44,928 nt of DNA from an uncultured Clostridia bacterium. Its GTDB lineage: Bacteria; Bacillota; Clostridia; Oscillospirales; CAG-272. Within the stretch, counting starts at the first letter, position 1. Every line of letters starts with the position of its first letter. Of the stretch, positions 507 through 42,832 are shown in pieces. The notes under the pieces are model-generated. The model was given only the letters and a program-made list of their open reading frames with translations, had not been told where the DNA came from and made no database searches. The stretch is from the NCBI GenBank assembly GCA_937892405.1, contig CALAFS010000242.1:1-44928 (forward strand), read 5' to 3'. A program made the translations under genes and the position numbers.

Positions 507-2249
507 CTACCTTCTCTTTCCCCCGCACAACTTCGAGAACACGCGGCGGAGGATATCGAAGGGCAGTACCGTCGCGGCAAGCGCGATCACGGTAAAAAGA
601 TCCTTCGCGGCGAGCGGCTCCGTGCGGAAGAGCGCGCCGCCGTAATAGATCATCAATACCTGTATCACGGCGATCAGGAGAAGGATCAGGACAAAGGGCT
701 TATTCTTCCCGATCCCGGCGAAGACGCGCAGGCGCTCACTCCGTGCGCAAAGGCAGTTCGCAAGTCCCGCGAAAATGAAGAGCGCATAGAACGCCGTCAA
801 AAAGTAAACCTCACCGCCCCCACCGGAAAACAGGCGGCGGAACATCGGGGCGCGCAGAAAGAGCATGCACAGCGTGAGCGTGTAGGCACCGGTCAGGGCG
901 ATCTGCCCGATCATCTGCCGCGAAAGGATCGGCTCTTCTCTCTTCTTCGGCTTTTCCTTCATATAATAAATATGCGGTGCTTCCCCGGCGAAAGCAAGCC
1001 CGCCGAGCGTATCCATGATAATATTCACCCACAGCATCTGAATGATGGTGATCGGATTGTCGATCCCGATAAACTGACCGATCAGGGAAACACCGCAGGC
1101 GACAAGGTTCATAATCAGCTGAAAGGTGATGAACTTACGGATCGACTTGAAGATCGTGCGCCCATAGAGCACGGTCTTGCCGATGGCGGCGAAGCCGTTA
1201 TGTAAGATCACGATGTCTCCCGCATTCTTCGCGATGTCGGTGCCCGATCCCATGGCAAAGCCGACATCGGCGAGCTTTAAGGACGGGGCGTCGTTGATCC
1301 CGTCGCCCGTCATGCCGACGACGGCACCTGCCGACTCCGCGATGCGGACGAGGCGGGTCTTATCCTGTGGGAGAGCGCGGGCGATCACACGGATTCTCGG
1401 CAAGAGGTCGACAACCTCGGCATCTGTCATGGCGCGAAGCTCGTCGCACCCGAGCACAAGCTCCGAGGTGTTCGGACGATAGATGCCACATTCGGCGGCG
1501 ATGGCGGCGGCTGTCTCTTTTCCATCTCCTGTCACCATGACGACCTGAATCCCCGCGCCGCGTACTTCTCTCACCGCGCCCCGCACGCCGTGGCGCAGTT
1601 TATCCTTCAGAAAGAACAGTGCGAGAAAGATCATCGGCGAACTCTCCGCGCCGAAGCGGCAGGTCGCGGCGAGTACCCGCTCGCCGCGGGCGGCAGCGTG
1701 ACGGTATTCTTCCATGATCCCTGCGGGATCAAAGGCAACCGTCTGCCCGTCCTCCCGCATGGCATAATGCACACCGGAGAGTAAAATCTCGGGAGCACCT
1801 TTATAGAGCGTCAGCTTCGGCGTGCCGTCGAGGGTCACCGAAGAATATTTTCTGTCACTGGAAAAGGGCGTCTTCGCCACCGCATCGGCGGGCAGGGCGC
1901 GCATGTCGCGGAAAAAGGACGCAATGGCGCGGTCGGTGCCGTTGCCGCCCATGACCTCGTTTCCCGAGACGACGGCATCGGTGTTATACTTTGCCGAGGC
2001 GGTCAGAAGCTCGGCGACCCGCCCTGCCTTTTTGAGCGCCGCAGGCGTGCGATAGCACGCCTCCCCGGTCAGAATCCGCTCGCACTCGAGCTTCCCCGTC
2101 GTCAGCGTCCCCGTCTTGTCGGTAAACAAAAGATTCATCGACCCCGCCGTCTCGATACCGACGAGCTTTTTCACAAGGACACCGTCCTTCTGCATACGGC
2201 GCATGTTCGCACTCAATACGACGGTAATCATCATTGGCAAACCTTCCGG
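507..2249 (-). CDS. P-type cation (Ca2+-type, P2) ATPase, C-terminal part of a prophage-split gene
   Basis: This is the ORF-track ORF 507..2240, whose first codon is TTG (Leu in the intact gene). The PEG codons continue to 2249. Hallmark motifs are DKTGTLT, KGAPE, MVTGD and TGDGINDAPSLKLADVGFAMG, followed by C-terminal TM helices. The fragment begins abruptly at the TM4 PEGLP motif. Confidence 0.9.
   Translation of the reverse strand, partial: PEGLPMMITVVLSANMRRMQKDGVLVKKLVGIETAGSMNLLFTDKTGTLTTGKLECERILTGEACYRTPAALKKAGRVAELLTASAKYNTDAVVSGNEVMGGNGTDRAIASFFRDMRALPADAVAKTPFSSDRKYSSVTLDGTPKLTLYKGAPEILLSGVHYAMREDGQTVAFDPAGIMEEYRHAAARGERVLAATCRFGAESSPMIFLALFFLKDKLRHGVRGAVREVRGAGIQVVMVTGDGKETAAAIAAECGIYRPNTSELVLGCDELRAMTDAEVVDLLPRIRVIARALPQDKTRLVRIAESAGAVVGMTGDGINDAPSLKLADVGFAMGSGTDIAKNAGDIVILHNGFAAIGKTVLYGRTIFKSIRKFITFQLIMNLVACGVSLIGQFIGIDNPITIIQMLWVNIIMDTLGGLAFAGEAPHIYYMKEKPKKREEPILSRQMIGQIALTGAYTLTLCMLFLRAPMFRRLFSGGGGEVYFLTAFYALFIFAGLANCLCARSERLRVFAGIGKNKPFVLILLLIAVIQVLMIYYGGALFRTEPLAAKDLFTVIALAATVLPFDILRRVFSKLCGGKRR
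2242..2249. other. attL core (CCTTCCGG)
   Basis: The 8-bp sequence is identical to 42825-42832. It sits exactly where ATPase homology stops. Confidence 0.75.
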
Positions 2250-2259
2250 ATATAATCAC

Positions 2260-2268
2260 TTAGTAGAA
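2260..2268. repeat. attP-arm inverted repeat, right arm (TTAGTAGAA)
   Basis: This is the perfect reverse complement of TTCTACTAA at 42806-42814. Each arm lies exactly 10 bp from the core once the phage ends are joined. Confidence 0.65.
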
Positions 2269-2272
2269 TATA

Positions 2273-2300
2273 GGGGCATCGAGATTTGATGCCCCTTTTC
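2273..2300 (+). terminator. Rho-independent terminator-like hairpin
   Basis: Stem GGGGCATC (2273-2280), loop GAGATTT, stem GATGCCCC (2288-2295), then TTTTCATTTTA on the plus strand. The minus-strand reading has only a weak U-tract. Confidence 0.55.
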
Positions 2301-2369
2301 ATTTTATGCGGCGGTGGGATTTTTACCACACCATTCTTGTACAGGCACAGGTGAACCGAAGGCGCGCTA

Positions 2370-3275: not shown

Positions 3276-3640
3276 TCTTCTTCACCCGCCTTTTCCGTCT
3301 CTGTACCGACCCGATAGATCGCGGCTCCGATCACATTCGAGAGGAGTCCCCAAAAGGCGATGACGAGCATTTCGTCAATGATGTTGCGCAGAGCGAAAAG
3401 AGAAACAAAAAGTATGCACCACAAACTCCAAACCGACGGCGATTTCATGTATTCGCGCAGCTGCTTCAAAAAAGGAAGACAGGACAGCATTGCAAACAGC
3501 AGAAACAATCCGGAAACGGTTGCGTCGGAGCTTCTCTCGATCCAAACAGGAAACTGCGTCAGAGTCGCCGCCATCGGCACACTGACATCAAGGAAGATCG
3601 CCGCACCTTTCCATATCCGTCCTTTCGTCTTACGCTTCAT
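3266..3640 (-). CDS. Small multi-pass membrane protein (holin candidate by size and topology only)
   Basis: The protein is 124 aa from ATG 3640, with RBS AGAGGGAG upstream. The ORF-track start at 3712 lies inside the upstream gene. There are about three hydrophobic segments. Confidence 0.5.
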   Translation of the reverse strand: MKRKTKGRIWKGAAIFLDVSVPMAATLTQFPVWIERSSDATVSGLFLLFAMLSCLPFLKQLREYMKSPSVWSLWCILFVSLFALRNIIDEMLVIAFWGLLSNVIGAAIYRVGTETEKAGEEEWK

Positions 3641-5172: not shown

Positions 5173-6236
5173 CTACACGGTTTTTAATCTGATGGGTTTA
5201 TAACAAAGGCGTGTACTGATATGCGGAGCTTGAAGATTCGATTTGTAATCGGCGCGACAGCCCCATAAGCCAACGCCTGAACCGCCCTCGCTTGCCGACC
5301 CTACACGGAGCACCGTTCCAACATCATCGTAAAAACAGCTATCCCCGTAATATTGTGTAGAATAGCCTCCGGAAGCTGCGTGGAATAAAAGCAATCGTCT
5401 ACTCCCGATCAATCCTTCCACACGAATAATTCCGGTTTCTGTCGCACGGTTTCCCGCATAGAAATACGGCGCTGCATAGGTATCGCACGCGTAACGATCG
5501 GGATCGAAGCATAGATATATCTTTTCTTTCTGAAAATTGATTCCGTCTGTCAAAGTCCATGCGTTTCCCCACGGATTTTCGATCCCGCGTGATACTTGCA
5601 CACATGCAAACCGTCGAAGTTACTTACTTCAGACCCCGATGCCGTTCGGACGGAATCGGCACGACCCGTAAAAACAAGCGCGGAGCCGGTCGAATATCCC
5701 CTCATAACACTTTGCGAATTCGTAGTAGCGAATTCCACGGTAAAAAGCTGTTTGATAATGGCGTCTATTAAAAAATCATAAACCTGATATCCCTCTCCGT
5801 GCCTTTTTGCGGCTTCCCGAAACCATGTAAGGTTTCTTGATACCGCAACGGAACTCTGCGATCGGGAAAAAATATCATCTCCCTCCATGGTTGCATGATA
5901 TTTTCCGATCAGCACATATTCAAGCTCGTTTCCCTCTCCGTCGATAAAAAGGGTTGAAAAACCCGAGTGTCGGGTTCCCGAAATCCGCATATTCAGAGTG
6001 CCGTCCGGATTCTCTGTAATACAAGAGTAAAACTTCGGAATTCTTATGAAGATATTGCCGAGCCGATCCTTTACCTCCGTAATATCCGACCACGGGTAGC
6101 AATGATCGAAATCGCTGATAATTTCCTCCGAAAATACCCGATAGGTCAATCCGAAGGCGTCGTCCGTTCGGGAGAGCGCCGGATCTATTCTTCCAAGTCC
6201 GGCGACCCCGTAGATTTTTTCAAGCTCCTGCTTCAT
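5173..6236 (-). pseudogene. Fibre/receptor-binding-type protein, paralogue of 6246..7337, interrupted by a frameshift
   Basis: ORFs 5550..6236 and 5173..5601 lie in different frames. Together they align along the full length of the neighbouring 363-aa protein through YPWSDITEV, IPKFYS, GFSTLF, IDAIIKQLFTVEFATT, RGIENPWGN and RLCYKP. Relative to the paralogue's CCGCGATACTTG, this copy reads CCGCGTGATACTTG, with 2 extra nt at about 5590-5591. Confidence 0.65.
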
Positions 6237-6245
6237 GCCGTTCTC

Positions 6246-7337
6246 CTATACCGGCTTGTAGCAAAGACGACAGGTGGCATTGGCACTTGCACTGATACCG
6301 CCGAGACAAAAATTCCAAAGACCGCCGATAGTACCTGTATGATCTTCGTCGATGCCGTCACCGAATCCGCCGCCAACATACAAATATTTGTTCCCGCCTG
6401 AATAATGATAGATCCCATCATAGAAGACGGACGGAAGCGATCCTGAAGAAACGACAGAAGGCAGCAAGAGCAACGGAAAGCGTGAGACACATATCAAGCG
6501 TTTGATCTCATGTTTTCTTCCCGTGGTAACGGGAGGCAGATTCCCAGCAAGGGAATAACGGATCGTCGCGCTCACATAATTTGCATACGGCAAAAATGTA
6601 ATACCGTCGCAAAATACACGGCAGTTTCCCCACGGATTTTCGATTCCGCGATACTTGATAGCGCCACCGTCGAGAATTCCGTGCTCGCCGTCCGCGACAT
6701 TTCCGCCGGTAGGCTGCTCGACAGTATCCGTATATCCTGTACGCTGAGCAGCACTTCCGCAAAGGTTTCCGAGCAAAACACTTTTGCAACTGGTTGTTGC
6801 AAACTCCACCGTGAAAAGCTGCTTGATGATAGCATCGATCCAAATGTCATAAGAGCAGTATCCGTCTCCGTACTGAGACTGGATGCACTTAAACATGGTG
6901 TCAATATCAAACCCCGTTACAACGGACTTTCCGCTTTTAGAGAAAATCTCGCCATAATAATTATCCGCACCGTATACCTGGATATCTCCGCTGGACTCAT
7001 ATTTTCCGACGAGAATATAATCGATCTCTTCGCCGAGATCGTTCACAAACAGCGTCGAAAAGCCATCATAGCGAAGCCCCGAAATCTGAAGTTTCAGAGT
7101 GCCGTCAGAATTCTCCATAATGCGGGAATAAAACTTCGGGATTTTCATGAACACATTGTCGTGTTTATCTATCACTTCCGTAATATCCGACCACGGGTAA
7201 CAACGATCAAAGTCGCTCTGAATCTTCCCGTCGACGACCCCCGCCGTCAGCTCCGCGGCATCGTCCGTACGAACGAGGGTGCCGTTCATCGTCCCCATGC
7301 CGTCTACGCCGTATATTTTTGTTTTTTCGAGAATCAT
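6246..7337 (-). CDS. Fibre/receptor-binding-type structural protein
   Basis: The 363-aa ORF lies distal in the structural operon. It is a paralogue of 5173..6236 and has a Gly-rich C-terminal region ending RLCYKPV. Confidence 0.6.
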   Translation of the reverse strand: MILEKTKIYGVDGMGTMNGTLVRTDDAAELTAGVVDGKIQSDFDRCYPWSDITEVIDKHDNVFMKIPKFYSRIMENSDGTLKLQISGLRYDGFSTLFVNDLGEEIDYILVGKYESSGDIQVYGADNYYGEIFSKSGKSVVTGFDIDTMFKCIQSQYGDGYCSYDIWIDAIIKQLFTVEFATTSCKSVLLGNLCGSAAQRTGYTDTVEQPTGGNVADGEHGILDGGAIKYRGIENPWGNCRVFCDGITFLPYANYVSATIRYSLAGNLPPVTTGRKHEIKRLICVSRFPLLLLPSVVSSGSLPSVFYDGIYHYSGGNKYLYVGGGFGDGIDEDHTGTIGGLWNFCLGGISASANATCRLCYKPV

Positions 7338-11588: not shown

Positions 11589-12629
11589 TCAGATAGAGGT
11601 TGCACCCGTCACGGCGCTGGAACTGTTTACGGCAAGCAGAATATGCTTCCAGCTGTTGAATCCGACACCGAAACGGCAATAACCGTTCCAGACGAAATTG
11701 CGCGTCGCATCGTCAATGTGGTTGCGGATATCCAGCTTCACGCGGTTGTAGAACATGTTGCCGAGGAGGTTGCGGTTTGCCGCGGAAGACATCATCATGA
11801 AACGGTCGTCGGTCGTCTCCCAACCGGGCAGAACAACAAGCGTATAGGCGCCGTACTGAATGTTGATGTCGTTGTAATCGGTGCCGGCAACGCGCTCGGA
11901 ACCGATCACCTTCTTCATCTTCAGCTCGAATTCGGGACGGTTGCACGGAAGAATGACCGTATCTGCGACATACTCCATCGTCTCGCCGCTTTCGTCCTTG
12001 AAATTGCGGAGCTTGTTCGACAGAACGACGAGTCCCTTCTCAAGCTTGCTCTCCGACGCGGTGATGTCTCCGTAGAAGAAGTTCGACTGCGTTTCTCCCG
12101 CAAACTTTTCGAGACTGTACGGGTGTTCGGAACAGAACAGGGGCTTCTTGTCACCGCAGGTCAGGTCAACCCGCTCGGAATTGATGCGCATTTCCGACGC
12201 CGTGCCGTGAATCAGTGCCTGTGCGCCGACCTTTGTGCGGGTCTTGTAATACGCACGGGTGAACGCTCGCGGGAGTGCTTTGATGTTCGCACCGATGCCG
12301 AACTGCGCGTCATCCGCCATTTCACGCGTAATAGTGAATTCCTTGCCGAAGGCAATGTGCTCGATCGTCTTGTGATAGGTTTTCTCGATGCTGTCGTTAT
12401 CCGCCTTTGCACCCTCGACCTTCGCATGGAAAGTCTCGAATTCCGACTGTGCCATGACAGTCTCGGAAGCGCGATTCGACTTCTCGACATTGTAAAGAAC
12501 ATCGAGAATATTTTTCTGCTTTTCGCAAACATCGGATTCATGCTCAATGAGAGCCTTGATGGCGTGCTCGAACTTCCCGTACATCGGGTCGTTCTTGCCA
12601 CTCATTTTTGAATAGATGAATGTGCTCAT
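11589..12629 (-). CDS. Major capsid protein
   Basis: The 346-aa ORF has an AAGGAG RBS. It follows the scaffold and the small decoration-like gene, and its size and composition are typical of HK97-fold capsid proteins. Confidence 0.7.
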   Translation of the reverse strand: MSTFIYSKMSGKNDPMYGKFEHAIKALIEHESDVCEKQKNILDVLYNVEKSNRASETVMAQSEFETFHAKVEGAKADNDSIEKTYHKTIEHIAFGKEFTITREMADDAQFGIGANIKALPRAFTRAYYKTRTKVGAQALIHGTASEMRINSERVDLTCGDKKPLFCSEHPYSLEKFAGETQSNFFYGDITASESKLEKGLVVLSNKLRNFKDESGETMEYVADTVILPCNRPEFELKMKKVIGSERVAGTDYNDINIQYGAYTLVVLPGWETTDDRFMMMSSAANRNLLGNMFYNRVKLDIRNHIDDATRNFVWNGYCRFGVGFNSWKHILLAVNSSSAVTGATSI

Positions 12630-14412: not shown

Positions 14413-14452
14413 ATTATAACACAGATTTACATCGATTCTGTCCCACTCTTTC
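14413..14452 (-). promoter_or_regulatory. Late promoter-like element, copy A (extended -10 TGTTATAAT plus conserved upstream 16-mer)
   Basis: The minus strand reads GAAAGAGTGGGACAGAATCGATGTAAATCTGTGTTATAAT. It matches 29206-29245 at 32 of 40 positions, including an identical 16-mer GAAAGAGTGGGACAGA. Confidence 0.45.
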
Positions 14453-28734: not shown

Positions 28735-29119
28735 GAATATTGACCTCGTAGCCGTTCTCTTTATTGATGTCCGCCTCGACCTTATCCTTCATGTCGTGAT
28801 TGTTGATGGCTATGAATTTCGCAAAGGTCGGATTGTACTTCTCTGCCATAGCCCCCTCGATCAGATTTCCCTTTTGGATATTCTTACAGCGCGCGTAGCA
28901 GTTCCGAAAACGGGGATATTTATCACGCCAGTTGAGCAGCGTGTCATTTGTAACACCGATGTTTTCGGCAAAAAGCTCGAAAGTCGGAAATCCTTCGTAA
29001 GTTTTGAAGTACGAAATCATCTGCTCCCCGTATTCGGGGCAGTATTTCACGGCTTTTGTATTGCCGTTTTGAAAGCGGGTTTCTTCCCCCACCGTATTTC
29101 CTTTTTTGAATTTGCTCAT
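28721..29119 (-). CDS. terS: Terminase small subunit
   Basis: The protein is 132 aa from ATG 29119 with a GGGAGA RBS. The pattern FAENIGVTNDTLLNWRDKYPRFRNCYARCKNIQKGNLIEGAMAEKYNPTFAKFIAINN is typical of HTH-type TerS. Confidence 0.75.
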   Translation of the reverse strand: MSKFKKGNTVGEETRFQNGNTKAVKYCPEYGEQMISYFKTYEGFPTFELFAENIGVTNDTLLNWRDKYPRFRNCYARCKNIQKGNLIEGAMAEKYNPTFAKFIAINNHDMKDKVEADINKENGYEVNIHVIK

Positions 29120-29139
29120 TTTGTTCTCCCGAAAAAACA

Positions 29140-29200
29140 AAAAGAGCCATGTTCCCCTTTTCCGGGTTCCTTGGCTCTCGCTCTTGGCATTGGCTCTTTT
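29140..29200 (-). terminator. Terminator-like structured leader (H1) between late promoter copy B and terS
   Basis: On the minus strand, AAAAGAGCCAATG pairs with CATGGCTCTTTT. An alternative AGAGCCA partner exists at 29172-29178. The element is followed by TTTTGTTTTTT. Confidence 0.5.
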
Positions 29201-29205: not shown

Positions 29206-29245
29206 ATTATAGCATAAGTTTACTTGCAATCTGTCCCACTCTTTC
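29206..29245 (-). promoter_or_regulatory. Late promoter-like element, copy B (extended -10 TGCTATAAT plus conserved upstream 16-mer)
   Basis: The minus strand reads GAAAGAGTGGGACAGATTGCAAGTAAACTTATGCTATAAT. It starts at the stop codon of 29244..29567 and lies about 90 nt upstream of terS. Confidence 0.5.
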
Positions 29246-32321: not shown

Positions 32322-32575
32322 TCGCTCTCGCCTCCGTCCATCTTTGCGCCGCACCATGGACAGAATTTATAGTGACTATGTCCTGCACCACCGCAGAAAG
32401 AACACGCGCGAAAAACTTTCGGCATGGCATCATACCATTGCGCGTGCCTGACTTCCTGCACATCGGCGATCGGCGCCCAATCCAATTCCGCAATAGGTAT
32501 AATATATTCGTGCCGTTCTTCGCTATATATCTTCTTTTCTTTTAACTTATCAGAGTCAATGTACCTGCTCATCAC
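32318..32575 (-). CDS. Zn-ribbon small phage protein
   Basis: The 85-aa protein carries a C-terminal CSFCGG...CPWCGAKM motif. Confidence 0.55.
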   Translation of the reverse strand: MMSRYIDSDKLKEKKIYSEERHEYIIPIAELDWAPIADVQEVRHAQWYDAMPKVFRACSFCGGAGHSHYKFCPWCGAKMDGGESE

Positions 32576-32849
32576 TCGCCCTCCTGTTCCATGCTTCGAT
32601 TGCTTTTTCTTTCAAAGAATCTCTTGATGATGCCCAGTTAGGCAGTTCACTTTCGCGCAGTCTTAACCGAGTCAAAATAACCTTTCCACCGACAGCTCCG
32701 CCGCGCGCATGACAGACATTACATCGTACTGAAAATGTTTCTCGTGCCACAGGTTCATCGGTTCCGGTTCTTCCGATTCTTCTATGTGTACCTTGAATTT
32801 TAAGTTTCTTGCTTCCGCAGAACGGGCAGGTCTTCAATTCTTCATTCAT
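32556..32849 (-). CDS. Lar-family restriction-alleviation-like protein
   Basis: The protein shows the N-terminal CPFCG, a central CNVCHARG and the C-terminal AIEAWNRRA signature of Lar-type proteins. Confidence 0.55.
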   Translation of the reverse strand: MNEELKTCPFCGSKKLKIQGTHRRIGRTGTDEPVARETFSVRCNVCHARGGAVGGKVILTRLRLRESELPNWASSRDSLKEKAIEAWNRRASDEQVH

Positions 32850-33734: not shown

Positions 33735-34034
33735 CTATATGTAATTTTTTCCGAAAAGACGACGAAATTCTTCGATACTCCAGCGGTAACATGACATTGC
33801 TACAACCTGTGCCCTCTTCTTGAGATCTCGATCTATCGCGGCATTTTTGTGCACTGCCTTCTCCCCGAATTCATGGCAGGAGAAATGGTGCAAGTACACG
33901 GTCAGACCGAATTTCTCCGATTTTTTTCGATACGCCCCGCCGAAAACATGATGCTTGTCCCTCGGATCGCCGAAGAAATTCCGCCCGCAAAGAAAGCACT
34001 TCTCTTTATCTTCCTGTAATATCGATTTAGCCAT
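33735..34034 (-). CDS. HNH-like (beta-beta-alpha-Me finger-like) small protein
   Basis: The protein is 99 aa from ATG 34034. Its pattern is CFLCG-x11-HHVFGG...LHHFSCH-x7-VH. Confidence 0.35.
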   Translation of the reverse strand: MAKSILQEDKEKCFLCGRNFFGDPRDKHHVFGGAYRKKSEKFGLTVYLHHFSCHEFGEKAVHKNAAIDRDLKKRAQVVAMSCYRWSIEEFRRLFGKNYI

Positions 34035-35040
34035 GCTTGCCTCCGAATTCCGCTTTGATGTTCTCTGCGAGAGCACAAAGTGCCGAATCGAGTTTTGCCG
34101 CCGTCTCCGTATCCCTCTCCCTGATCTCGCACAAAGATGTTTTCATCTTCCGCAAGATCTCCTGTACCGTATCAAAATATGTTTTGAAGGTCGTGATTGC
34201 CGGGTTCGCGGTTTTCAGAAGTTTCGTGCTTTCATTCAGTTTTTCTCTCGCCTCTTTTGCCTCATTCTCCGCAAGCACCCGGCGCAGTTCTGCCTCTTCT
34301 GCCGCCTTTTTTGCCGCCTCTGCTTCTTTTTGCGTATTCATAATCATGTTGGCGAGTTCTTTTTTGATCCGCGCTTCGGCTTCTCTCTCCGTCTTTTCCC
34401 GAAGTTCTTTCGCCGCCCCCGATGAAAGCTTTGCCGGCTTCTTTTTCTCTTCGGCAAGCCTTGCCTCGAGATCTTTGACTTTTGCTTCCAGGGAGACCGC
34501 TTCATTCGCACGCTTCTCCGCTTCTTTTGCCGCAGCCTCGGCGCGTTCTGCTGCGTCCTCTGCATCTGCTCTGCGCTTCCGCTCCTGTTCCGCCGCGGCT
34601 ATGGCATCGTTTCTTTCCTTAATTGCCGCCTTCAATTCCGATACCGAAAGATTTTCCGCGTCAACCGATTCCGCAAACGCTTCCCTCTCCTCGCTCGGGA
34701 CAGCGAGAAGTTGCAAAGCCTTTGTATACGGCAAATTCGCAATCGATTGTGAATTTGTTGTTGCTCCGAAAATGGTAATCTGTGCCGCACCGTATTCATC
34801 AAAGAGTCTCATAAAGTTGTTTGCCGTTGACTGCGAAAACTCCACTTCATTCTTCAGCCAATTTCCCCACTCACCGTGCGGCAATACTTCTTTTGCTTCC
34901 ACCAGTCTGCGCCCGATCTCTATCGCATACATGAGCGCCATCGTCTGTGCCTGTCGGCAAAGCTCCCTGACCTCCGCGGTAATTACGCCAATTTCACGCG
35001 CCGGCACGCCCGATCTCATTTCCTGTACTTTGTTTTCCAT
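34027..35040 (-). CDS. DUF3102-like protein with long Ala/Glu/Lys coiled coil
   Basis: The N-terminal motif YAIEIGRRLVEAKEVLPHGEWGNWLKNEVEFSQSTANNFMRL supports the call. The start is uncertain (35040 or 35019). The gene contains the 24-nt palindromic repeat. Confidence 0.6.
   Translation of the reverse strand: MENKVQEMRSGVPAREIGVITAEVRELCRQAQTMALMYAIEIGRRLVEAKEVLPHGEWGNWLKNEVEFSQSTANNFMRLFDEYGAAQITIFGATTNSQSIANLPYTKALQLLAVPSEEREAFAESVDAENLSVSELKAAIKERNDAIAAAEQERKRRADAEDAAERAEAAAKEAEKRANEAVSLEAKVKDLEARLAEEKKKPAKLSSGAAKELREKTEREAEARIKKELANMIMNTQKEAEAAKKAAEEAELRRVLAENEAKEAREKLNESTKLLKTANPAITTFKTYFDTVQEILRKMKTSLCEIRERDTETAAKLDSALCALAENIKAEFGGKHG
34733..34756. repeat. 24-nt exact copy of the palindromic element AAATTCGCAATCGATTGTGAATTT
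   Basis: The sequence is identical to 14466-14489. It lies inside the DUF3102-like coding sequence and encodes TNSQSIANL. Confidence 0.85.
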
Positions 35041-36703
35041 TTTCTTTCCCTTTCTTTGCCTGAATATATGCAAGCCATTTTTCTTCAAACTGAATCACAT
35101 CGTCACTGCGAGCACAATTGCGCAAGCCCCTGTTCTGCACTACACAACCATTCTTGTATTCCAAAGTAAAATACGGAGTATCCCGTGCCGAAATTTTCCG
35201 AATGAAAAGAATACAGGTGTTCCCTCTCGCACAATCATCTCCGTAGGAAGCCACGCAATGATGCAGTGTCGCTCCTTCTTTCGTCAACTCCTCTTGTGAA
35301 GTACACGGGCGGATACAAAGCCCGAGCTCTGCGTCTTCATAGGTGAGATATTCGTTCTTTTCTGCGTTGGCAAGAATCTTTTTCGCTTTTTCTTCACTTT
35401 CTTTCGCTTTATAGATCTTCACCGCGCGATCATGCGCCACGGTCAGATCATTCGGGTACACCACATCAGACGGCAGGGCGTCCCCGTGGATTTCTTTCGC
35501 CATATTCAGATAGTCGCGGAAAGTAAGATAAGAAATATTTCTATTTCTCTTTTCCTGCCTCAAAAGGTAGTTTATTGTCCTGACCGCCGGAAGCGAAATT
35601 CCCTCTCCGTCTGCCCACTTGAAAAGGTCAAGCACGCCGGAATACGATCGTTTGAGCAATTCTCTCGTGAGCTTTACCTTTCGGGTGCTGTAAATATATC
35701 GGTACAGACTCACCTTTTTTAACGGCAACGCCCGAATGAGCGCAAGATCACACTTTTCGACCGACAGCATCTCATGCGGTTTTGCCTTTTTCGGGTTGAA
35801 ATACTCTTTGAAATTGCTGATGTAGAATTTGCTGTATGAAAAATAGTAAGATCCACTCGTATGGACGCTCGCTTCGATTGCGTCTTTAATATACACCGAA
35901 AATCCGTTCCTTACAAGGTTTTCGATATTCGGGTACTTACACCACGCGTCCATATATGAGAAGATATCTACCGGCGTCCCTGCGTTATCTACAAAAACAT
36001 CGAGAGCGCTATGCCCGGTACCCGTCTCTTCAAGGATATTCCATTCTTTTCCTTGACACAAAATGTGTTCCCGCTTCCATCTGCCATATCCGTAAAATCT
36101 CTTCACCTCTTTCCATTGATTGAAAAAAGATTTATGATAATAACAATTCGACCACCCTCCGACAAATTTCCGAACGCCGTCAATGTATATGGCACCGAGA
36201 CCCCGTGTTGTCCGATAAGCAATCTCCCCCTCTTTGTTTACGATCTTTTGTGTATCCCATGTAAGAATGGCAAGATGTGATCTGACATTGTGAAAGGTGA
36301 CATAATTGCAACTGTCAATCCCTGCCCCTTCAGAAGAGATTTCGGAACAGTGCAAAGCGGTTACAGGTTTTCCGCAACTCGGGCATTGAACAGCGTCTCT
36401 TGTATATACGGGGGTGCCGAGCAACGGATCTATGTAGCCGACGAGACTTGCTCGACGATAGCAACCTTTTTCACAGTCCGCTGCCCGCTCAAAGACGGTT
36501 TCTATACCGCAAGCGGTGCATCTTCCAATCACCTTGTCTGCTTGTCTTTTCGTTCCGTTTGTGATTGCAGTGCCGCAGCGGAAAATCATGCAATTCTCTT
36601 GCTTCATTTTTCGGACAGCGAATTCTACGGCAGTTTTTGGCGGTTCTTGCGGCAGTTCGTCAATCGTCCGTGCGAATTCTTCCTTGTCTTTTCTCTTCGC
36701 CAT
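34994..36703 (-). CDS. PcfJ-like protein
   Basis: The protein is 569 aa from ATG 36703. It has an N-terminal Zn-ribbon-like pair of Cys motifs. The C-terminal motif EGATLHHCVASYGDDCARGNTCILFIRK...PYFTLEY is typical of the PcfJ domain. Confidence 0.6.
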   Translation of the reverse strand: MAKRKDKEEFARTIDELPQEPPKTAVEFAVRKMKQENCMIFRCGTAITNGTKRQADKVIGRCTACGIETVFERAADCEKGCYRRASLVGYIDPLLGTPVYTRDAVQCPSCGKPVTALHCSEISSEGAGIDSCNYVTFHNVRSHLAILTWDTQKIVNKEGEIAYRTTRGLGAIYIDGVRKFVGGWSNCYYHKSFFNQWKEVKRFYGYGRWKREHILCQGKEWNILEETGTGHSALDVFVDNAGTPVDIFSYMDAWCKYPNIENLVRNGFSVYIKDAIEASVHTSGSYYFSYSKFYISNFKEYFNPKKAKPHEMLSVEKCDLALIRALPLKKVSLYRYIYSTRKVKLTRELLKRSYSGVLDLFKWADGEGISLPAVRTINYLLRQEKRNRNISYLTFRDYLNMAKEIHGDALPSDVVYPNDLTVAHDRAVKIYKAKESEEKAKKILANAEKNEYLTYEDAELGLCIRPCTSQEELTKEGATLHHCVASYGDDCARGNTCILFIRKISARDTPYFTLEYKNGCVVQNRGLRNCARSDDVIQFEEKWLAYIQAKKGKENGKQSTGNEIGRAGA

Positions 36704-36713
36704 GGCTTCCGCC

Positions 36714-37073
36714 TCAAAGGAAAGAGGAAAGATCGAGGTAGTCGGATTTTGTTTCGGTCGTTGTCTCCCGCATCTCACTCGGCTCGGGTAATCCATAAAA
36801 TTCACACAGAATCTTCTCGGCAATCTTTGATGAAACACAAGCGTAATTTTTACCGTTGCGATGCGCGTCCGCATAGTCGCGGATTTTCTTCTCCGCTTCC
36901 CTGATGTGCATTTCCGGCACCGCAAGATCGGTCACGAGAAGTTCGGCGGATCTCGGGTCTCTTTCGGCAATTTCCTTGAGTTGTTCTCCGACAAAAAAAG
37001 CGGGCGAAGTCTCGGAAAGCTCTTTTTGTTGTTCTTCGATGATCTTCGCCGCGCGAATTGCTATTTCATTCAT
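36714..37073 (-). CDS. PcfK-like protein (family that includes AcrIIA9-type Cas9 inhibitors)
   Basis: The 119-aa ORF has a GAGGGAG RBS. It lies directly upstream of the PcfJ-like gene, as in pcfK-pcfJ pairs. The motif is KKIRDYADAHRNGKNYACVSSKIAEKILCEFYGL. Confidence 0.5.
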   Translation of the reverse strand: MNEIAIRAAKIIEEQQKELSETSPAFFVGEQLKEIAERDPRSAELLVTDLAVPEMHIREAEKKIRDYADAHRNGKNYACVSSKIAEKILCEFYGLPEPSEMRETTTETKSDYLDLSSFL

Positions 37074-37260: not shown

Positions 37261-37475
37261 TTCCTCCTCATTTTGATGTCTGACACGCTTTGCCTCTTCC
37301 CCCGGTGTCCGGGGATCGGAGAGTATTTCGGATAAAGAGCAAACGAATACTTTCGCGGACGATAGTATGCGTCGTAGATCGCGACGATGTTTCCTTGCTC
37401 GTCCCTCTCGATCACCTTAAGCTTCTTGCCTTCTATCGGTCTGTCATAAAGCTCAAAAATACTTGTATCACCCAT
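37251..37475 (-). CDS. Small hypothetical protein
   Basis: The protein is 74 aa from ATG 37475. The ORF-track extension to 37658 lies inside the replication gene. Confidence 0.45.
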   Translation of the reverse strand: MGDTSIFELYDRPIEGKKLKVIERDEQGNIVAIYDAYYRPRKYSFALYPKYSPIPGHRGKRQSVSDIKMRRKWD

Positions 37476-38313
37476 GATCCTTCTCCTCTCCGTATGTTCG
37501 GCGCAACGCAGCCTTGAAAGCGTCCTCCGCATCGAAGGTTCCGTAGCGCTCTTTTTGTGCCTCAAGTGTATTCGGGATACCGTTGGTCTCCCAGTCCCGC
37601 ATACGCTCCCGCCAGTCAAAAGCGGTGCCCGTCGCGTCCCGCCACTTTCTCCGCTCATAATAGCGGAAGAAACGATGCGGATTGACGCGGTTCCCTCGCT
37701 CCGCGGCGTAGGCGATCACCTCGTCCAAGGAGGGCGACGAAGAAGCCGTGCTCTCTTCTGCTTTAAGCGTAGCTTCTGCTTTCTTTTTCTCTTTCTCTTT
37801 GCTTTGTGTGTTTTCTGTACTTTTATCGGCGTTTTCTGTAATTTTATCGGGGTTTTCGGTACTTTTATCTATCAGAACGAGCTTCGACAGAATACTTTCG
37901 GGAAGATCTTCCCGATCCTGCAAATCCAGCAGAAAGTATTCTCGTCGCATTTTGATTTGACTTCGGCTGTTGAACATGCGCACATAGCGCCGTTGGATAC
38001 CTGCGGAGGTCAGAACTCCGAACGACATCGCCACCCGTTCATCGAAGAACGAACAACGAATACACCCGGTCACGAATTCCTCTACAAAGGCAGGACTGAT
38101 GCCGCACCGCACGCTGTCCGCGATCAAAGTGCGCTTCACCTTGTCCCATGTTATGTAATATCCGTTTTTGCCGTAGCACTCGCATAACAGATAATCCAAA
38201 AGATACATGCCCTTCGCACCGTACTCGGCGCGTAAGAGCTTTACTTTGTCATCGTCGTAAAATGCCGTATCCTTTGGAAAATACGATACCCCGTCCTTGA
38301 TCGGACGAGCCAT
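37468..38313 (-). CDS. Replication initiator, DUF4373 (Lin1244/Lin1753-type) N-terminal domain
   Basis: The N-terminus MARPIKDGVSYFPKDTAFYDDDKVKLLRAEYGAKGMYLLDYLL...GYYITW is the characteristic signature. The central part contains a 7-aa x3 repeat. Confidence 0.75.
   Translation of the reverse strand: MARPIKDGVSYFPKDTAFYDDDKVKLLRAEYGAKGMYLLDYLLCECYGKNGYYITWDKVKRTLIADSVRCGISPAFVEEFVTGCIRCSFFDERVAMSFGVLTSAGIQRRYVRMFNSRSQIKMRREYFLLDLQDREDLPESILSKLVLIDKSTENPDKITENADKSTENTQSKEKEKKKAEATLKAEESTASSSPSLDEVIAYAAERGNRVNPHRFFRYYERRKWRDATGTAFDWRERMRDWETNGIPNTLEAQKERYGTFDAEDAFKAALRRTYGEEKDHG
37811..37873. repeat. Three tandem 21-bp repeats inside the replication gene (iteron/origin candidate)
   Basis: The units are TTTTCTGTACTTTTATCGGCG, TTTTCTGTAATTTTATCGGGG and TTTTCGGTACTTTTATCTATC. 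They encode DKSTENP/DKITENA/DKSTENT. Confidence 0.55.
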
Positions 38314-38954: not shown

Positions 38955-39344
38955 ATGAATGATATGGGCGCAATTATCAAACGCTTAAGACTCCAAAAGG
39001 GTCTTACACAAGAAGAGCTCGGAGAAATTATCGGCGTTCAAAAGTCTGCTATCCGTAAGTATGAGAGCGGCATGGTTCAAAACATGAAAAGAAGCTCCAT
39101 AAAAAAACTGGCAGACTTCTTTGAAGTTACTCCTTCTTATCTTTTGGGATATGAAGTAGGAGATGACGCCGAATTAACACTCACCCCACACGAAAAGTCC
39201 GTTATCATCGCCTACCGCAACAATCCGAGTATGCAAGGCGCCGTAGACAAGCTCCTCGGCGTAGAAGAGGACGGTATCGACTTGGGGGAAGACATGGCAA
39301 ACACCCTCAGAGGGGCATTGAGAAAAAAGTCCGTCTCAAAATAA
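38955..39344 (+). CDS. CI-like XRE-family HTH repressor (no S24 peptidase domain)
   Basis: The motif LRLQKGLTQEELGEIIGVQKSAIRKYESG supports the call. The protein is 129 aa and is divergent from the cro-like gene. Confidence 0.8.
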   Translation: MNDMGAIIKRLRLQKGLTQEELGEIIGVQKSAIRKYESGMVQNMKRSSIKKLADFFEVTPSYLLGYEVGDDAELTLTPHEKSVIIAYRNNPSMQGAVDKLLGVEEDGIDLGEDMANTLRGALRKKSVSK

Positions 39345-39373
39345 CGATTCTCCTCCCTCTCAACAGAATCGTT
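39343..39373 (+). terminator. Possible terminator hairpin after the repressor gene
   Basis: AACGATTCT, a 13-nt loop, then AGAATCGTT. Only a weak T-tract (TTACATCTT) follows. Confidence 0.3.
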
Positions 39374-39407
39374 TACATCTTCACGATCTATTACATAAAG
39401 AGTTAAA

Positions 39408-39758
39408 ATGCCTTTAGAACACGCGGTAATAAAAATGAACGAATTAGCAATGAGAATTAAATCTGCGATTGAAAATTCGGGGCTTTCACAAAGAGAAATT
39501 GAAATAAAAACCGGAATTCCTCACTCTGCCATTCAGCGCTACGCTTCTGGCAATACCGAAAAAGTTCCAATCAAGCGAGTGGAGGCTATTGCAAAAGCAA
39601 CTGGGACAACAGCGGAATACTTGCTCGGTTGGGACGATCAAAAAAGAAACTCTGCGGATCATTCGGCGGAATTCCTTAATTTGTTTCAACAATTGTCGGA
39701 AGAACAGCAATTTTTGATCATCTCACAAATTAAAGGAATTCTATCAAATTATAAGTAA
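39408..39758 (+). CDS. Second XRE-family HTH protein
   Basis: The motif is SGLSQREIEIKTGIPHSAIQRYASG. The protein is 116 aa and lies 32 nt upstream of the nuclease gene. Confidence 0.75.
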   Translation: MPLEHAVIKMNELAMRIKSAIENSGLSQREIEIKTGIPHSAIQRYASGNTEKVPIKRVEAIAKATGTTAEYLLGWDDQKRNSADHSAEFLNLFQQLSEEQQFLIISQIKGILSNYK

Positions 39759-39790: not shown

Positions 39791-41119
39791 ATGGATTCAA
39801 GCGTATTATGTATAGTCATTTTTGTTGGCATCCTATTTTTATTAGGTTTCATTGCGTGGCTTTTGGATTCTTTTGCAAACCTCACCGAGAGCAAGAAAAA
39901 ATTCCGTCAATTATTGGAAAACGAAAACAAGACAAAAGAATTAAGTGAACGCCTAAACAAGAGAGAACAAGAATTCGAGACAGAATCCACGCAAAAATCT
40001 AATGAATTAACTCGCAGATCTAAAGAATTAGCCCAAAAATCCGATAAACTTGATAAAGAAATTGCACATTATAATGCACTTATCAGCGGGAACGACAAGG
40101 TAATTGAAGAAAAGTGCGCGTCCTATAAAAACAAGCTGGAGAATGATATTGCATACTATAACTCTCTTATCACAGGATTCGATAAAGTGATCGAGCAAAA
40201 ATGCGCATATTACCCGCAGCTCGCGGCTATTGTGGCAGATATCGAAACTGTTTTTTATGAGCGTTCCGCTCAATACTTGGAAACAAAAAAGACCCCCGCA
40301 AAAGTCGAGGCATCACGAATCCGAGAACTCCGCCGACAAACACGAAGAATTTTAGCCGAAAAGAAAGCGTCCGACTACCGACTCGAATATATCAAAACCA
40401 TGTTTCCTAATATTGAAGACATCTTCGATAATGACTTCGCCGCACCCGAAGATTTCGAATTGGAAACGGACGAAACGACCGACAGAACACGCAATTTTCT
40501 TTCTCACGAAGAATACGCTTCCCTCTCCACTACGGAACGCAATCAGCTTGCTCTCGACCGATACCTTGAATCAAGAAAATCGAAATGGCAAGTCGGGCGC
40601 GACTATGAGCTGTATATCGGTTATCAATACGAGTGCCACGGCTACACTGTCAAATACACAGGAATCATAGAAAACTTTGAGGATATGGGAAGAGACCTGA
40701 TCGCGCAAAAAGGAAATAAGGTTCTCATTATACAGTGTAAAAACTGGTCGCAGGAAAAGACCATTCATGAAAAACATATCTTTCAGTTATTCGGCACTCT
40801 CATTCTTTATCAGCTTGAAAACCCGACCCTAAAATCTTCTGCTCTGTTCGTGACTACGACAAGCCTTTCGGAGAAAGCGAAAGGAATCGCGAAGCATTTG
40901 AATATATCCGTAAGAGAAAATATCGCCCTATGCGATTTTCCGAGGATCAAGTGCAATATCAATCGTCAAAGCGGAGAAAAAATCTATCACTTGCCCTTCG
41001 ACCAACAATACGACACCGTAGTGATTGAAAAAGACAAAGGCGAGTTTATGGCATTCACTGTCGCAGAAGCGGAAAATGCCGGGTTCCGCCGTGCCTTCAA
41101 GCACTTCGCGTCGCAGTAA
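39791..41119 (+). CDS. Membrane-anchored coiled-coil protein with a Mrr-type PD-(D/E)xK nuclease domain
   Basis: The N-terminal TM helix is VLCIVIFVGILFLLGFIAWLL. About 200 aa of coiled coil follow, with an internal duplication. The nuclease core is GRDYELYIG...EDMGRDLIAQKGNKVLIIQCKNW. The C-terminal module is SGEKIYHLPFDQQY...FTVAEAENAGFRRA. Confidence 0.7.
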   Translation: MDSSVLCIVIFVGILFLLGFIAWLLDSFANLTESKKKFRQLLENENKTKELSERLNKREQEFETESTQKSNELTRRSKELAQKSDKLDKEIAHYNALISGNDKVIEEKCASYKNKLENDIAYYNSLITGFDKVIEQKCAYYPQLAAIVADIETVFYERSAQYLETKKTPAKVEASRIRELRRQTRRILAEKKASDYRLEYIKTMFPNIEDIFDNDFAAPEDFELETDETTDRTRNFLSHEEYASLSTTERNQLALDRYLESRKSKWQVGRDYELYIGYQYECHGYTVKYTGIIENFEDMGRDLIAQKGNKVLIIQCKNWSQEKTIHEKHIFQLFGTLILYQLENPTLKSSALFVTTTSLSEKAKGIAKHLNISVRENIALCDFPRIKCNINRQSGEKIYHLPFDQQYDTVVIEKDKGEFMAFTVAEAENAGFRRAFKHFASQ

Positions 41120-41140
41120 AGCAACCGCAATCCTAAGCAA

Positions 41141-41169
41141 AATAAAAAAGCGCCTTCCAAAGAAGGCGC
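41141..41169 (-). terminator. Rho-independent terminator for the minus-strand small ORF (possibly bidirectional)
   Basis: GCGCCTTC (41150-41157), loop CAAA, GAAGGCGC (41162-41169). On the minus strand the hairpin is followed by TTTTTTATTTT. Confidence 0.6.
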
Positions 41170-41210
41170 AGAGAGCGATAGGGTTGTCCGTGGGGAAAGC
41201 GGATGCTACA

Positions 41211-41333
41211 CTACCCGCGAACCACGACGAAAGCATCGTCGTCTTCCCCCTTCTTTTTTACTTGAAAGATGAGTTCTATCCCTCTCTTATCGTAAATTTG
41301 AATCAGCGCTTTCAACAGTTTGATAATATCCAT
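41211..41333 (-). CDS. 40-aa ORF next to and divergent from the integrase gene
   Basis: This ORF is below the ORF-track cutoff. A strong RBS GGGAGGAAAT precedes ATG 41333, and a terminator lies downstream. The sequence is MDIIKLLKALIQIYDKRGIELIFQVKKKGEDDDAFVVVRG. It is paralogous to the C-terminus of 38332..38520. Confidence 0.45.
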   Translation of the reverse strand: MDIIKLLKALIQIYDKRGIELIFQVKKKGEDDDAFVVVRG

Positions 41334-41348
41334 ATTTCCTCCCTGTCA

Positions 41349-41373
41349 ATATGTATTTCTATGTCATACATAT
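41349..41373. promoter_or_regulatory. Inverted repeat between the small ORF and the integrase gene
   Basis: ATATGTAT (41349-41356), a 9-nt spacer, then ATACATAT (41366-41373). Confidence 0.4.
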
Positions 41374-41416
41374 GAGGCAAAGCGAATAAAATATACCGTA
41401 AGACAAAAGAAAGGAA

Positions 41417-42799
41417 GTGGTTTGCATAAAAAACGCAAACGAAGCAAGACAAGTCCGAGAGATACCGAAGATTGTCGGCGGATACATTCGTGTATCGACC
41501 GAAGAGCAATCGCGCAACGGACTCTCCCTTGAATCTCAAAGAGCGGATATTGAAGACTACTGCCGCCGCATGGGATACCGACTCGAAAAATACTACATAG
41601 ACGCCGGTATCACCGCACGGAAATCTCTTTACAAACGCTTCGCCTTCATGAATATGATGCGCGATGTGCAGGAAAAGAAAATCAACCATATCGTTGTGCT
41701 TCGTCTCGACCGTTTCTTCCGCAATGTGTATGACTATCACCGAATGATGCATGAGCACCTCGATCCTGCCGGGTGCGGTTGGTCTGCCGTCAAGGAAGAG
41801 TACGACACCACGACGACAAACGGACGCCTGATGATCAACCTCCGTCTCTCCATCGCGGAGCAGGAGTGCGATCAGGACTCCGACAGAATCAAGGATGTTT
41901 TCGCGAACCGGATCAAAGAAGGCTATGTCGTGACCGGTCACCCGCCCCTCGGATATAAGATAGAGAACAAGCGTCTCGTCCCGGACGAGAACGCCGACCT
42001 CGTGCGGGAGATCTTCGACTCCTTCCTCCGTTTGAATTCCATTCGCCTCGTTCTTCTCGATCTGCGTGAGAGGTTGCATGTGGACATGAAGTACGACCGC
42101 ATCAACGGTACGCTTCGGAAAGAAATCTACATCGGTCATAACAGAGACAACAAGAATTATTGTGAGCCGCTCGTCTCGGAGGAAACATTCAACGCCGTGC
42201 AGCGCGGACTTGACAACAACATCCGAGCAAGGGGCACAAGAAAGGTCTATATCTTCTCGAGACTGATAAAGTGCGCCTGTTGCGGGCACTCCATGGCGGG
42301 CAGCTCCCCGAACGCGTATAAGAATTGCAACCCGTTTATGTACTACCGGTGCAATTTCGCCTACCAAAACCTGACTTGCAATAACCGCCACAACACCAAC
42401 GAAGCCGTCGTCGAAAAGTTTCTTCTTGAAAATGTCGAGACTCTGCTTGAAGAACGAATTGTGAAAGTAGCGGCAAAAGAAAAATCTGCTCCTGCTCCTC
42501 GCAAAGGAAACAGAAAGCAGATCGAGGCGAAAATCGAGCGACTCATGGAATTGTATATCAATAAAGTCATCGAGCTCGACGAGTTCAAAAAAAGGAGAGA
42601 AGAGCTTGAAGCGAAGATTATTGACGATGAGGTAGAACCAAAGAAGACCGATCTGACCGCCGTGAAAGCCTTCCTCGACAGCGGATTCAAAGAAATATAC
42701 GGCGGTCTTTCTCCACTTGAAAAGCGTGCCCTTTGGCGAGGCATCATCAAAGAGATCATCTGTGAAGGAAGCGAAGTCAAGCAGGTTGTTTTTTTGTAG
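41417..42799 (+). CDS. int: Large serine recombinase (phage integrase)
   Basis: The N-terminal resolvase-type catalytic region is GGYIRVSTEEQSRNGLSLESQ...VVLRLDRFFRN. A recombinase domain, a Cys-rich Zn-ribbon (CACCGH...YYRCN...C) and a coiled coil follow. The only in-frame canonical start is GTG 41417. Confidence 0.9.
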   Translation: MVCIKNANEARQVREIPKIVGGYIRVSTEEQSRNGLSLESQRADIEDYCRRMGYRLEKYYIDAGITARKSLYKRFAFMNMMRDVQEKKINHIVVLRLDRFFRNVYDYHRMMHEHLDPAGCGWSAVKEEYDTTTTNGRLMINLRLSIAEQECDQDSDRIKDVFANRIKEGYVVTGHPPLGYKIENKRLVPDENADLVREIFDSFLRLNSIRLVLLDLRERLHVDMKYDRINGTLRKEIYIGHNRDNKNYCEPLVSEETFNAVQRGLDNNIRARGTRKVYIFSRLIKCACCGHSMAGSSPNAYKNCNPFMYYRCNFAYQNLTCNNRHNTNEAVVEKFLLENVETLLEERIVKVAAKEKSAPAPRKGNRKQIEAKIERLMELYINKVIELDEFKKRREELEAKIIDDEVEPKKTDLTAVKAFLDSGFKEIYGGLSPLEKRALWRGIIKEIICEGSEVKQVVFL

Positions 42800-42805
42800 C
42801 ACGAT

Positions 42806-42814
42806 TTCTACTAA
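42806..42814. repeat. attP-arm inverted repeat, left arm (TTCTACTAA)
   Basis: This is the reverse complement of 2260-2268. It lies 10 bp from the core. Confidence 0.65.
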
Positions 42815-42824
42815 CTCGTGTATG

Positions 42825-42832
42825 CCTTCCGG
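42825..42832. other. attR core (CCTTCCGG)
   Basis: The sequence is identical to 2242-2249. It encodes the PEG of the ATPase PEGLP motif on the minus strand. Confidence 0.75.

Follow-up and report, generated by a model that had tools for sequence, protein, structure and literature searches.

A Prophage Inserted at the Pro-Glu-Gly Codons of a Ca2+ P-Type ATPase Gene in an Uncultured Clostridia Bacterium

Introduction

Phages that use serine integrases to land inside conserved genes are well known: the bacterial attachment site (attB) of A118 lies in comK and that of Bxb1 in groEL1, and phiC31 likewise inserts within a gene. In these enzymes, a nonpalindromic central dinucleotide sets the polarity of the reaction, and identity between the recombining sites is needed at this dinucleotide only. 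Here, we analyze a contig of 44,928 nt from an uncultured Clostridia bacterium of the Oscillospirales (CALAFS010000242.1 of assembly GCA_937892405.1), hereafter referred to as the window, in which an insert with the genes of a temperate tailed phage divides the gene for a Ca2+ P-type ATPase. The insert resembles A118/phi10403S, SPbeta with its integrase SprA, phiC31, and Bxb1 in having an inverted-repeat phage attachment site (attP) around a short core, an attB within a coding sequence, and a very short identity between attP and attB; however, both the target gene and the core sequence differ from those of known large serine integrases, and its integrase is at most 37% identical to that of any isolated phage.

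Recurrent use of a single site has been described before. Many distantly related large serine recombinases target one gene cluster, for example, the Mg-chelatase/comM-like gene, and a single conserved target site lies in a prolyl isomerase (Durrant et al. 2022, PMC10083194). The pattern found here is the same, with integrases that are 56–91% identical, and in our case the site is the PEGL ion-site motif and is used in both orientations. A P-type ATPase target is mentioned in neither the main text nor the text supplements of that survey, and we found no report in the literature of a prophage or serine integrase with an attB in a P-type ATPase gene; one apparent match was rejected because it concerned copB cargo in an SCCmec element.

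Two other groups of elements invite comparison. In gene-intervening elements, a serine recombinase element interrupts a coding sequence that is rebuilt by precise excision (PMC5499854, PMC5595907, PMC10747680). Skin in sigK, SPbeta in spsM, gin in gerE, yin in yabG, and phi10403S in comK share with our locus an interrupted coding sequence that excision restores; in contrast to these, the window element is polymorphic among related species and gave no sign of conditional excision, and its link to sporulation is by analogy with YloB only, with a pump that scores as another ATPase subtype. The second group is that of negative lysogenic conversion by Staphylococcus aureus phages, where a nonessential gene function (hlb or geh) is abolished as long as the prophage is present; those phages use tyrosine integrases and differ in this respect from the window phage.

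We conclude, with a probability of roughly 0.85, that a temperate tailed phage of 40,583 bp was placed by its large serine integrase into the PEG codons of a PMCA-type ATPase gene and that restoration of this gene upon excision is a by-product of the reaction and not an evolved switch.

Results

The Split ATPase Gene and the Attachment Sites

The features on which the analysis of the junctions depends are the following.

507–2249, minus strand: C-terminal ATPase fragment, which starts with the shared PEG core, ends at the stop codon, and includes DKTGT, Hydrolase, and Cation_ATPase_C
2242–2249: left-hand copy of the core (CCTTCCGG, read as CCGGAAGG in the direction of the ATPase gene, Pro-Glu-Gl(y))
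2250–42824: prophage body (with one core copy, a phage genome of 40,583 bp)
2260–2268: attP arm P' (TTAGTAGAA), 10 bp from the core
2272–2296, plus strand: G+C-rich hairpin followed by a T run, across attP from the integrase gene (int)
41417–42799, plus strand: large serine integrase, a 460-aa open reading frame (ORF) from GTG with Resolvase, Recombinase, and Zn_ribbon_recom domains
42806–42814: attP arm P (TTCTACTAA), 10 bp from the core
42825–42832: core copy at the right junction (CCTTCCGG)
42825–43705, minus strand: N-terminal fragment of the ATPase, residues 1–293 and two bases of Gly294

When positions 1–2249 are joined to 42833–44928, the minus strand reads as a single ORF of 871 aa from an ATG at 43705, which is preceded by an AGGAG ribosome-binding site, to the stop at 507. 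The joined protein reads ...LMITVVVVAVPEGLPMMITVVLS...LFTDKTGTLT..., with the PEG stretch ...VAVPEGLPMMITVV...DKTGT, PEGLP at residue 292, and DKTGT at residue 335. It contains all four P-type ATPase Pfam domains (Cation_ATPase_N, E1-E2_ATPase, Hydrolase, and Cation_ATPase_C) and passes the NCBI equivalog model for PMCA-type pumps, TIGR01517 (537.7 bits versus a cut-off of 507.05), while its score on the SERCA-type model is far under the cut-off (303.9 versus 703.4 bits). Its top relatives of solved structure are plant ACA8, human PMCA1 and PMCA2, SPCA1, and Listeria LMCA1. This sequence evidence places the split gene among the P2-type Ca2+ ATPases and, within these, in the PMCA type, an assignment that holds for the joined sequence, as each fragment alone is incomplete. 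The N-fragment aligns to residues 1–306 and the C-fragment to residues 292–870 of uninterrupted homologs, and the called product of the C-fragment (P0124, 575 aa) is 100% identical to it. Both fragments together align end to end with single homologs at the loci L001 and L002 (residues 1–869 and 1–871, respectively), and the original prediction of a P2-ATPase that would read in frame through the TM4 motif PEGLP to DKTGT once the bacterial sides are joined is thereby upheld.

Both junctions share exactly the 8 bp CCTTCCGG, with identity ending at 8 bp on both sides, and these are the only two occurrences of this sequence in the whole window. The repeat alone is no evidence because chance gives two copies per 45 kb (2 found versus 1.56 expected, and two or more in 44 of 100 shuffles); the core is significant because of its place, as the two copies mark precisely where a gene is broken that otherwise matches uninterrupted homologs along its full length. 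When the inner flanks are joined (...CTCGTGTATGCCTTCCGGATATAATCAC...), the result is an attP of approximately 46 bp that consists of TTCTACTAA, 10 bp, CCTTCCGG, 10 bp, and TTAGTAGAA, that is, a 9-10-8-10-9 plan with inverted 9-bp arms and a dyad center at TC/GA. The reconstructed attB (...GTCGCCGTCCCGGAAGGTTTGCCAATG...) lacks the attP arms in its flanks. No exact match to the reconstructed attP was obtained in viral contigs; arm P' is also present in the CAVEOF lysogen described later (L036) and in intact attPs of relatives, and it has one mismatch in the SRR22974106 lysogen (L113). The core at these positions, the inverted arms at a distance of 10 bp from it, and an int gene that ends 25 nt from the core had all been predicted from the window itself, and each is found again here, with the attP architecture preserved intact in related phages.

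The hairpin at 2272–2296 also bears an A run on its opposite side and may be bidirectional in action. In the circular phage it would lie across attP from int as a putative terminator of the int transcript, from which integration would separate it; in the prophage, it sits between the late operon and the ATPase C-fragment. Counterpart hairpins are found beside the attP or the junction in L036, L113, L054, L068, L069, and L106. The placement of sib relative to int in phage lambda is a parallel to this position.

Uninterrupted Alleles in Related Genomes

The ATPase scan took one genome per species and yielded 48 loci. Among the approximately 46 species representatives that carry the gene, a single one has it split, and the nearest relatives of the window allele (88–91% aa identity) are empty. 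Uninterrupted alleles are present in L001 (a metagenome-assembled genome from Hadza gut, 90% aa identity), L002 (88%), and L116 (91%, from the protein search); for all three, nucleotide identity to the window is approximately 83%. L001 and L002 carry GTCCCGGAAGGTCTTCC at the break point. The empty junctions read GCGGTC-CCGGAAGG-TCTTCC (L001 and L002) and GCGGTC-CCTGAAGG-TCTTCC (L116), compared with GCCGTC-CCGGAAGG-TTTGCC in the joined window, so that CC(G/T)GAAGG stands exactly at the predicted place and is followed by TCTTCC(A/G)ATGATG. Because these three alleles align straight through the junction, we regard the attB predicted from the sequence as real. The joined window sequence is in frame and collinear with all three, with no base lost or gained at the level of sequence. 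The search for an uninterrupted related allele that the original prediction had proposed thus returned the junction that it foresaw, and its statement that excision would restore the gene agrees with these alignments base for base. The neighbors of the ATPase gene in the empty alleles (KsgA, a HemN-like enzyme, and an FGGY kinase) are housekeeping genes, and nothing related to sporulation is among them.

Further Lysogens That Share the Insertion Site

At least six other lysogens carry a phage at the same PEG codons, with integrases that are 59–91% identical to that of the window and host ATPases that are 43–90% identical. They are listed below with cores in the gene sense.

CAVEOF010000003.1 (L043 and L036): integrase 91%, both junctions, insert of approximately 37.8 kb, ATPase 89–90%, core CCTGAAGG at both junctions
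L117: integrase 88%, int abuts the N-fragment, core CCGGAAGG
SRR22974106 (L052 and L113): integrase 80%, both junctions on two contigs, different lysogeny cargo, shared core CCCGAAGGACT
L053: integrase 72%, int abuts the C-fragment (opposite orientation), ATPase 49%, core CCTGAAGG
L105: integrase 65%, int abuts the N-fragment, ATPase 45%, core CCCGAGGG
L107–110: integrase 59%, int abuts the N-fragment, nine contigs, ATPase 43%, core CCAGAAGG

Insertion is at one and the same codon triplet across hosts whose pumps are only 43–90% identical to the window pump. In the three lysogens for which both junctions are available, the two core copies agree at the proline wobble position too (G in the window, T in CAVEOF, and C in SRR22974106, where the junction identity extends to 11 bp); because they agree, each phage attP matched the synonymous codon of its host.

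Integrase homologs led to intact attPs with a 9-10-8-10-9-like plan in L054, L111, L063–69, L096, L106, and the Enterococcus phage phiFL2A. On contigs that hold phage sequence only, the attP follows directly after int: in L054 (integrase 60%, contig of 40,972 nt) it reads GGTATACTAA-10-CCCGAAGG-10-TTAGTATAAC, and in L111 (integrase 56%) the arms likewise enclose CCCGAAGG. Among integrases that are at least 56% identical and have readable downstream sequence, nine of ten are followed by a core that codes for Pro-Glu-Gly, the exception being L106 (CCCGTGGG). More distant relatives (51% or less) retain the order of arm (...ACTAA), approximately 10 bp, CCNNNNGG, approximately 10 bp, and arm, with different inner bases (CCATTTGG, CCTGTAGG, CCGGTAGG, CCAACAGG, and others), and phiFL2A (integrase 37%) shares this arm-10-CCNNNNGG-10-arm plan with the core CCAGATGG. 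From these alignments, CC....GG looks like a recognition feature of the whole family, with the inner four bases setting the target. The center of symmetry lies between the fourth and fifth bases of the core, and this dinucleotide is nonpalindromic in every member (GA, TT, GT, or AC). Relative to int the core is flipped in L053 (2302–2340), L054 (5321–5400), and L111 (1495–1560), where the int strand reads CCNGAAGG and not CCTTCNGG, and these elements are consequently inserted, or would insert, in the opposite orientation.

A sister contig of L111, L112 (ERZ27247192 k141_531280, 39,872 nt, integrase 56%), ends at its 3' side with the last base of the CCCGAAGG core, while L111, which comes from another sample, reads on through an intact attP. 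A mixture of integrated and free forms in the sample would be expected to make an assembly stop at this base.

The Integrase

The integrase matches PF00239 (E = 1.9e-27, residues 22–169), PF07508 (28.8 bits, cut-off 21.1), and PF13408 (41.3 bits, cut-off 25.3), which is the domain set of large serine integrases from temperate phages of Firmicutes and accords with the class first assigned to it from the window. In an alignment with 29 homologs, G22, Y23, R25, V26, and S27 of the YIRVST motif are invariant and I24 and T28 nearly so, and the cysteines C286, C289, C312, and C321 are invariant as well. No integrase of an isolated phage is more than 37% identical; the Enterococcus phages phiFL1-3 reach 37% and the Clostridioides phage phiCD27 reaches 35%. 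A search of viral contigs with the integrase only gave relatives that are just 36% identical and have a different core.

An ORF of 827 aa at 41312–43795 on the minus strand (797 aa from the ATG at 43705), which fuses the ATPase N-fragment to the antisense of int and covers the antisense of the whole integrase gene, was rejected as probably a product of chance. It is open because int has no TTA, CTA, or TCA codon (approximately 5.4 expected), and in the nearest relatives the corresponding frame does not stay open (366 aa in CAVEOF and 296 aa in L052). The ATPase promoter would nonetheless drive transcription antisense across int.

Gene Content of the Prophage

The insert has a G+C content of approximately 49%, compared with 56–60% in the flanks, and is densely coding, with nearly all genes on the minus strand. 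The following genes were identified.

5173–7337, minus strand: two tail protein paralogs in tandem (phrog_5302)
11589–12629, minus strand: major head protein (phrog_371)
14521–23661, minus strand: polyvalent protein of 3,046 aa with ART-PolyVal and PBECR3 domains
25379–27325, minus strand: portal protein (phrog_156, 1.7e-38)
27322–28734, minus strand: large terminase (PF03237; phrog_979, 1.7e-52)
28721–29140, minus strand: small terminase (phrog_3064)
32556–32849: Lar-like protein
34027–35088: DUF3102 protein
34994–36925: PcfJ-like protein
37468–38313, minus strand: replication initiation protein (Lin1244_N)
38955–39344 and 39408–39758, plus strand: two XRE-type helix-turn-helix regulators, divergent from the early and late genes
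39791–41119, plus strand: protein of 442 aa, encoded between the regulators and int, with a nuclease domain of the Mrr_cat family

With terminase, portal, major capsid, and tail genes and a lysogeny module all present, the insert belongs with the tailed temperate phages as a Caudoviricetes prophage; the terminases, portal, major head, tail, and replication initiator genes bear out the prophage identity that had been proposed for it. The best match to the terminase in the phage collection is 48% identical and comes from an uncultured fecal phage contig, and the best match from an isolated phage is 42% identical (Bacillus phage PK1).

A plus-strand module at the right end comprises the XRE regulators, the Mrr_cat protein, and the integrase, and we assign the regulator pair at 38955–39758 as the lysogeny module on the basis of sequence. 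The Mrr_cat protein is probably a moron or defense gene, as judged by its place between repressor-like genes and int; its Mrr_cat domain is C-terminal, and an N-terminal match of the RNase_Y_N type is weak (19.5 bits, under the 32-bit cut-off).

The polyvalent protein occupies 22% of the phage genome and is mostly without family matches apart from its ADP-ribosyltransferase and PBECR3 nuclease-like domains; its gene lies between a portal-proximal gene for a 574-aa protein and the head genes. A 40-nt element on the minus strand, GAAAGAGTGGGACAGA...TG(T/C)TATAAT, which ends in an extended -10 box, occurs at 29206–29245 upstream of the small-terminase gene and at 14413–14452 upstream of the head-gene block, and the pair probably represents two copies of a late promoter with a common upstream operator. 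The downstream tail paralog (5173–6236) is split into the overlapping ORFs 5550–6236 (profile positions 234–405) and 5173–5601 (profile positions 406–545), and the tail paralog region holds the internal repeats D3 and D12; a frameshift, pseudogene formation, and faulty assembly are all conceivable causes of the split.

Flanks of the ATPase Gene

The only Rfam match in the window is a Gut-1 RNA (RF01706) at 359–428 on the plus strand (60.8 bits versus a gathering score of 50), directly downstream of the ATPase gene. The Gut-1 unit GTGAAAT.CGCCTGCGGCG.G.GAAA recurs beyond the other side of the gene, with copies of a 26-nt unit at 417–442, 44598–44623, and 44656–44681, and the motif behaves in the window like part of a dispersed intergenic repeat. 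Direct mosaic intergenic repeats flank the ATPase gene together with the prophage (1–340 versus 43841–44543) and form the pairs 1–100 and 44332–44431 (92% identity), 88–291 and 43841–44044 (90%), and 264–339 and 44468–44543 (84%); inverted copies are found at 44094–44205. The assembly probably stopped at the contig ends because these lie inside the mosaic repeats. If the flanking repeats recombined, the entire ATPase gene and the prophage could be lost in one deletion.

Discussion

How the Phage Would Enter and Leave the Gene

The window and its relatives suggest the following course of events. The integrase would bind the attP and pair it with the attB inside the ATPase gene, both sites would be cut at the central dinucleotide (TC on the plus strand and GA in the gene sense), and the strands would be exchanged conservatively to give two junctions with only the 8-bp core in common. 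The ATPase is split after residue 293, in TM4 and before the phosphorylation site, and would be nonfunctional in the lysogen; loss of pump function in lysogens is what this position predicts. Excision by the integrase together with a directionality factor would rebuild the gene base for base, an exact restoration to which the collinearity of the joined sequence with the empty alleles points. Comparison of the cores indicates that the PEG codons are the inherited attB of the whole integrase clade (56–91% identical) in phages of gut Clostridia, and a motif that is fixed at the protein level would give these phages a site that stays available even as their hosts diverge. That excision would restore the gene is most likely incidental to conservative recombination rather than an evolved switch.

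Several points weigh against this account. The position of the cut is deduced from dyad symmetry. No empty allele was found in the same species, the best full-length proteins being 91% and 88% identical with approximately 83% identity at the DNA level, and the polymorphism between empty and occupied sites is therefore demonstrated only between related species. No directionality factor was recognized among the small phage ORFs; we know of no family that recombination directionality factors have in common. Lysis genes (endolysin and holin) were not recognized either, and none of the four ORFs closest to the left end matches a family in PHROGs or Pfam. Finally, homologous integrases have 439–451 aa and start with MNEPK(T/I)VGGYIRVST, but the ATG of these homologs is absent from the window integrase, which reads ...VREIPKIVGGYIRVST; its sole canonical start is the GTG at 41417, directly after AAAGGAA, with a poorly spaced ribosome-binding site, and its translation may be weak or impaired. 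Because one tail gene is split, apparently by a frameshift, the ATG of int is missing, and lysis genes were not recognized, the element could be partly defective.

Possible Decay of the Prophage

The same three features argue for a prophage that was integrated as described but is now decaying or locked in, so that it no longer excises or forms particles and the ATPase is permanently inactivated. The contig was also assembled through both junctions, which suggests that the integrated form was dominant in the sample. Even so, we consider this outcome unlikely: all other large genes are open, including the 3,046-aa ORF, and the two att junctions and the two arms are undamaged and correspond to those of relatives, while the frameshift is possibly an error of metagenomic assembly and the unrecognized genes at the left end may be novel.

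The Idea of a Conditional Switch

Under a second alternative, the prophage would excise as part of a host program, for example, in the sporulating mother cell, and rebuild the Ca2+ pump when it is needed. Some observations make this idea attractive. As in gene-intervening elements, a coding sequence is interrupted that precise excision would restore, and the whole integrase clade uses the same site. Serine recombinases drive known sporulation rearrangements (PMC5499854, PMC4191935, PMC5595907, PMC10747680), and irreversible excision in the mother cell would cost the germ line nothing. In Solibacillus silvestris, a 2026 study found that the Ca2+-ATPase YloB is made specifically in the mother cell and is required for spore maturation and heat-resistant spores (PMC12999246). 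Given the known rearrangements and this role of YloB, a switch would not be an absurd proposition by analogy.

However, the evidence from the locus points the other way. The original prediction, which invoked the association of YloB with sporulation in Bacillus, treated conditional restoration as pure inference; it is still that, and looks weaker than was suggested there. The window pump passes the PMCA-type equivalog and scores far under the SERCA-type cut-off. For YloB of Bacillus subtilis, which we take to be SERCA-type, the best score would presumably be on the SERCA-type model. The link between the window pump and YloB is one of analogy and not of orthology. Moreover, the genes next to the empty alleles are housekeeping genes, the element is neither fixed nor retained at the site across the lineage (related species are empty), the inserts are full-size phages with varied cargo, and that of the window looks like a complete phage. 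Relatives insert in both orientations relative to the gene, and because both occur, a conserved coupling between a host promoter and int is unlikely. The data give no support to a reversible switch, and we judge conditional excision at this locus to be very improbable. A broader version would make the clade as a whole a set of removable insertions that keep a Ca2+ pump of spore-forming gut Clostridia interrupted until sporulation, specifically in the mother cell, or some other host state triggers their excision; it strikes us as slightly less probable still. If it were true, the pump would be rebuilt only when Ca2+ must move, and the clade would be a new case of the SPbeta/skin class with ion transport as its target, where the known cases affect a regulator or an envelope enzyme.

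An assembly chimera, in which phage sequence was joined to two fragments of a host gene, might be suspected because the window is an entire metagenomic contig with repeated intergenic sequence at its ends. This reading is effectively refuted: a phage occupies the same codons in six further assemblies drawn from different samples, with both junctions present in two of these, and the window junctions show exactly the attL/attR structure that the intact attPs of relatives predict.

Implications

Integration of a temperate phage by its large serine integrase, with gene restoration as a by-product, makes this locus a mechanistically ordinary and clean case of phage integration into a gene, with a target gene that is apparently unreported. 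It provides a complete set of attP, attB, attL, and attR for an uncharacterized serine integrase, and the relatives form a natural series of cores that differ at single positions and occur in both orientations, which is useful for the study of integrase specificity and for tool building. For the hosts, the PEGL motif of Ca2+ P-type ATPases is a phage landing site across gut Clostridia with pumps that are 43–90% identical. Lysogeny by this clade would remove a calcium pump of the host, a predicted loss that gives a simple, testable phenotype, and if the pump is needed in sporulation, the switch hypothesis becomes directly testable as well.

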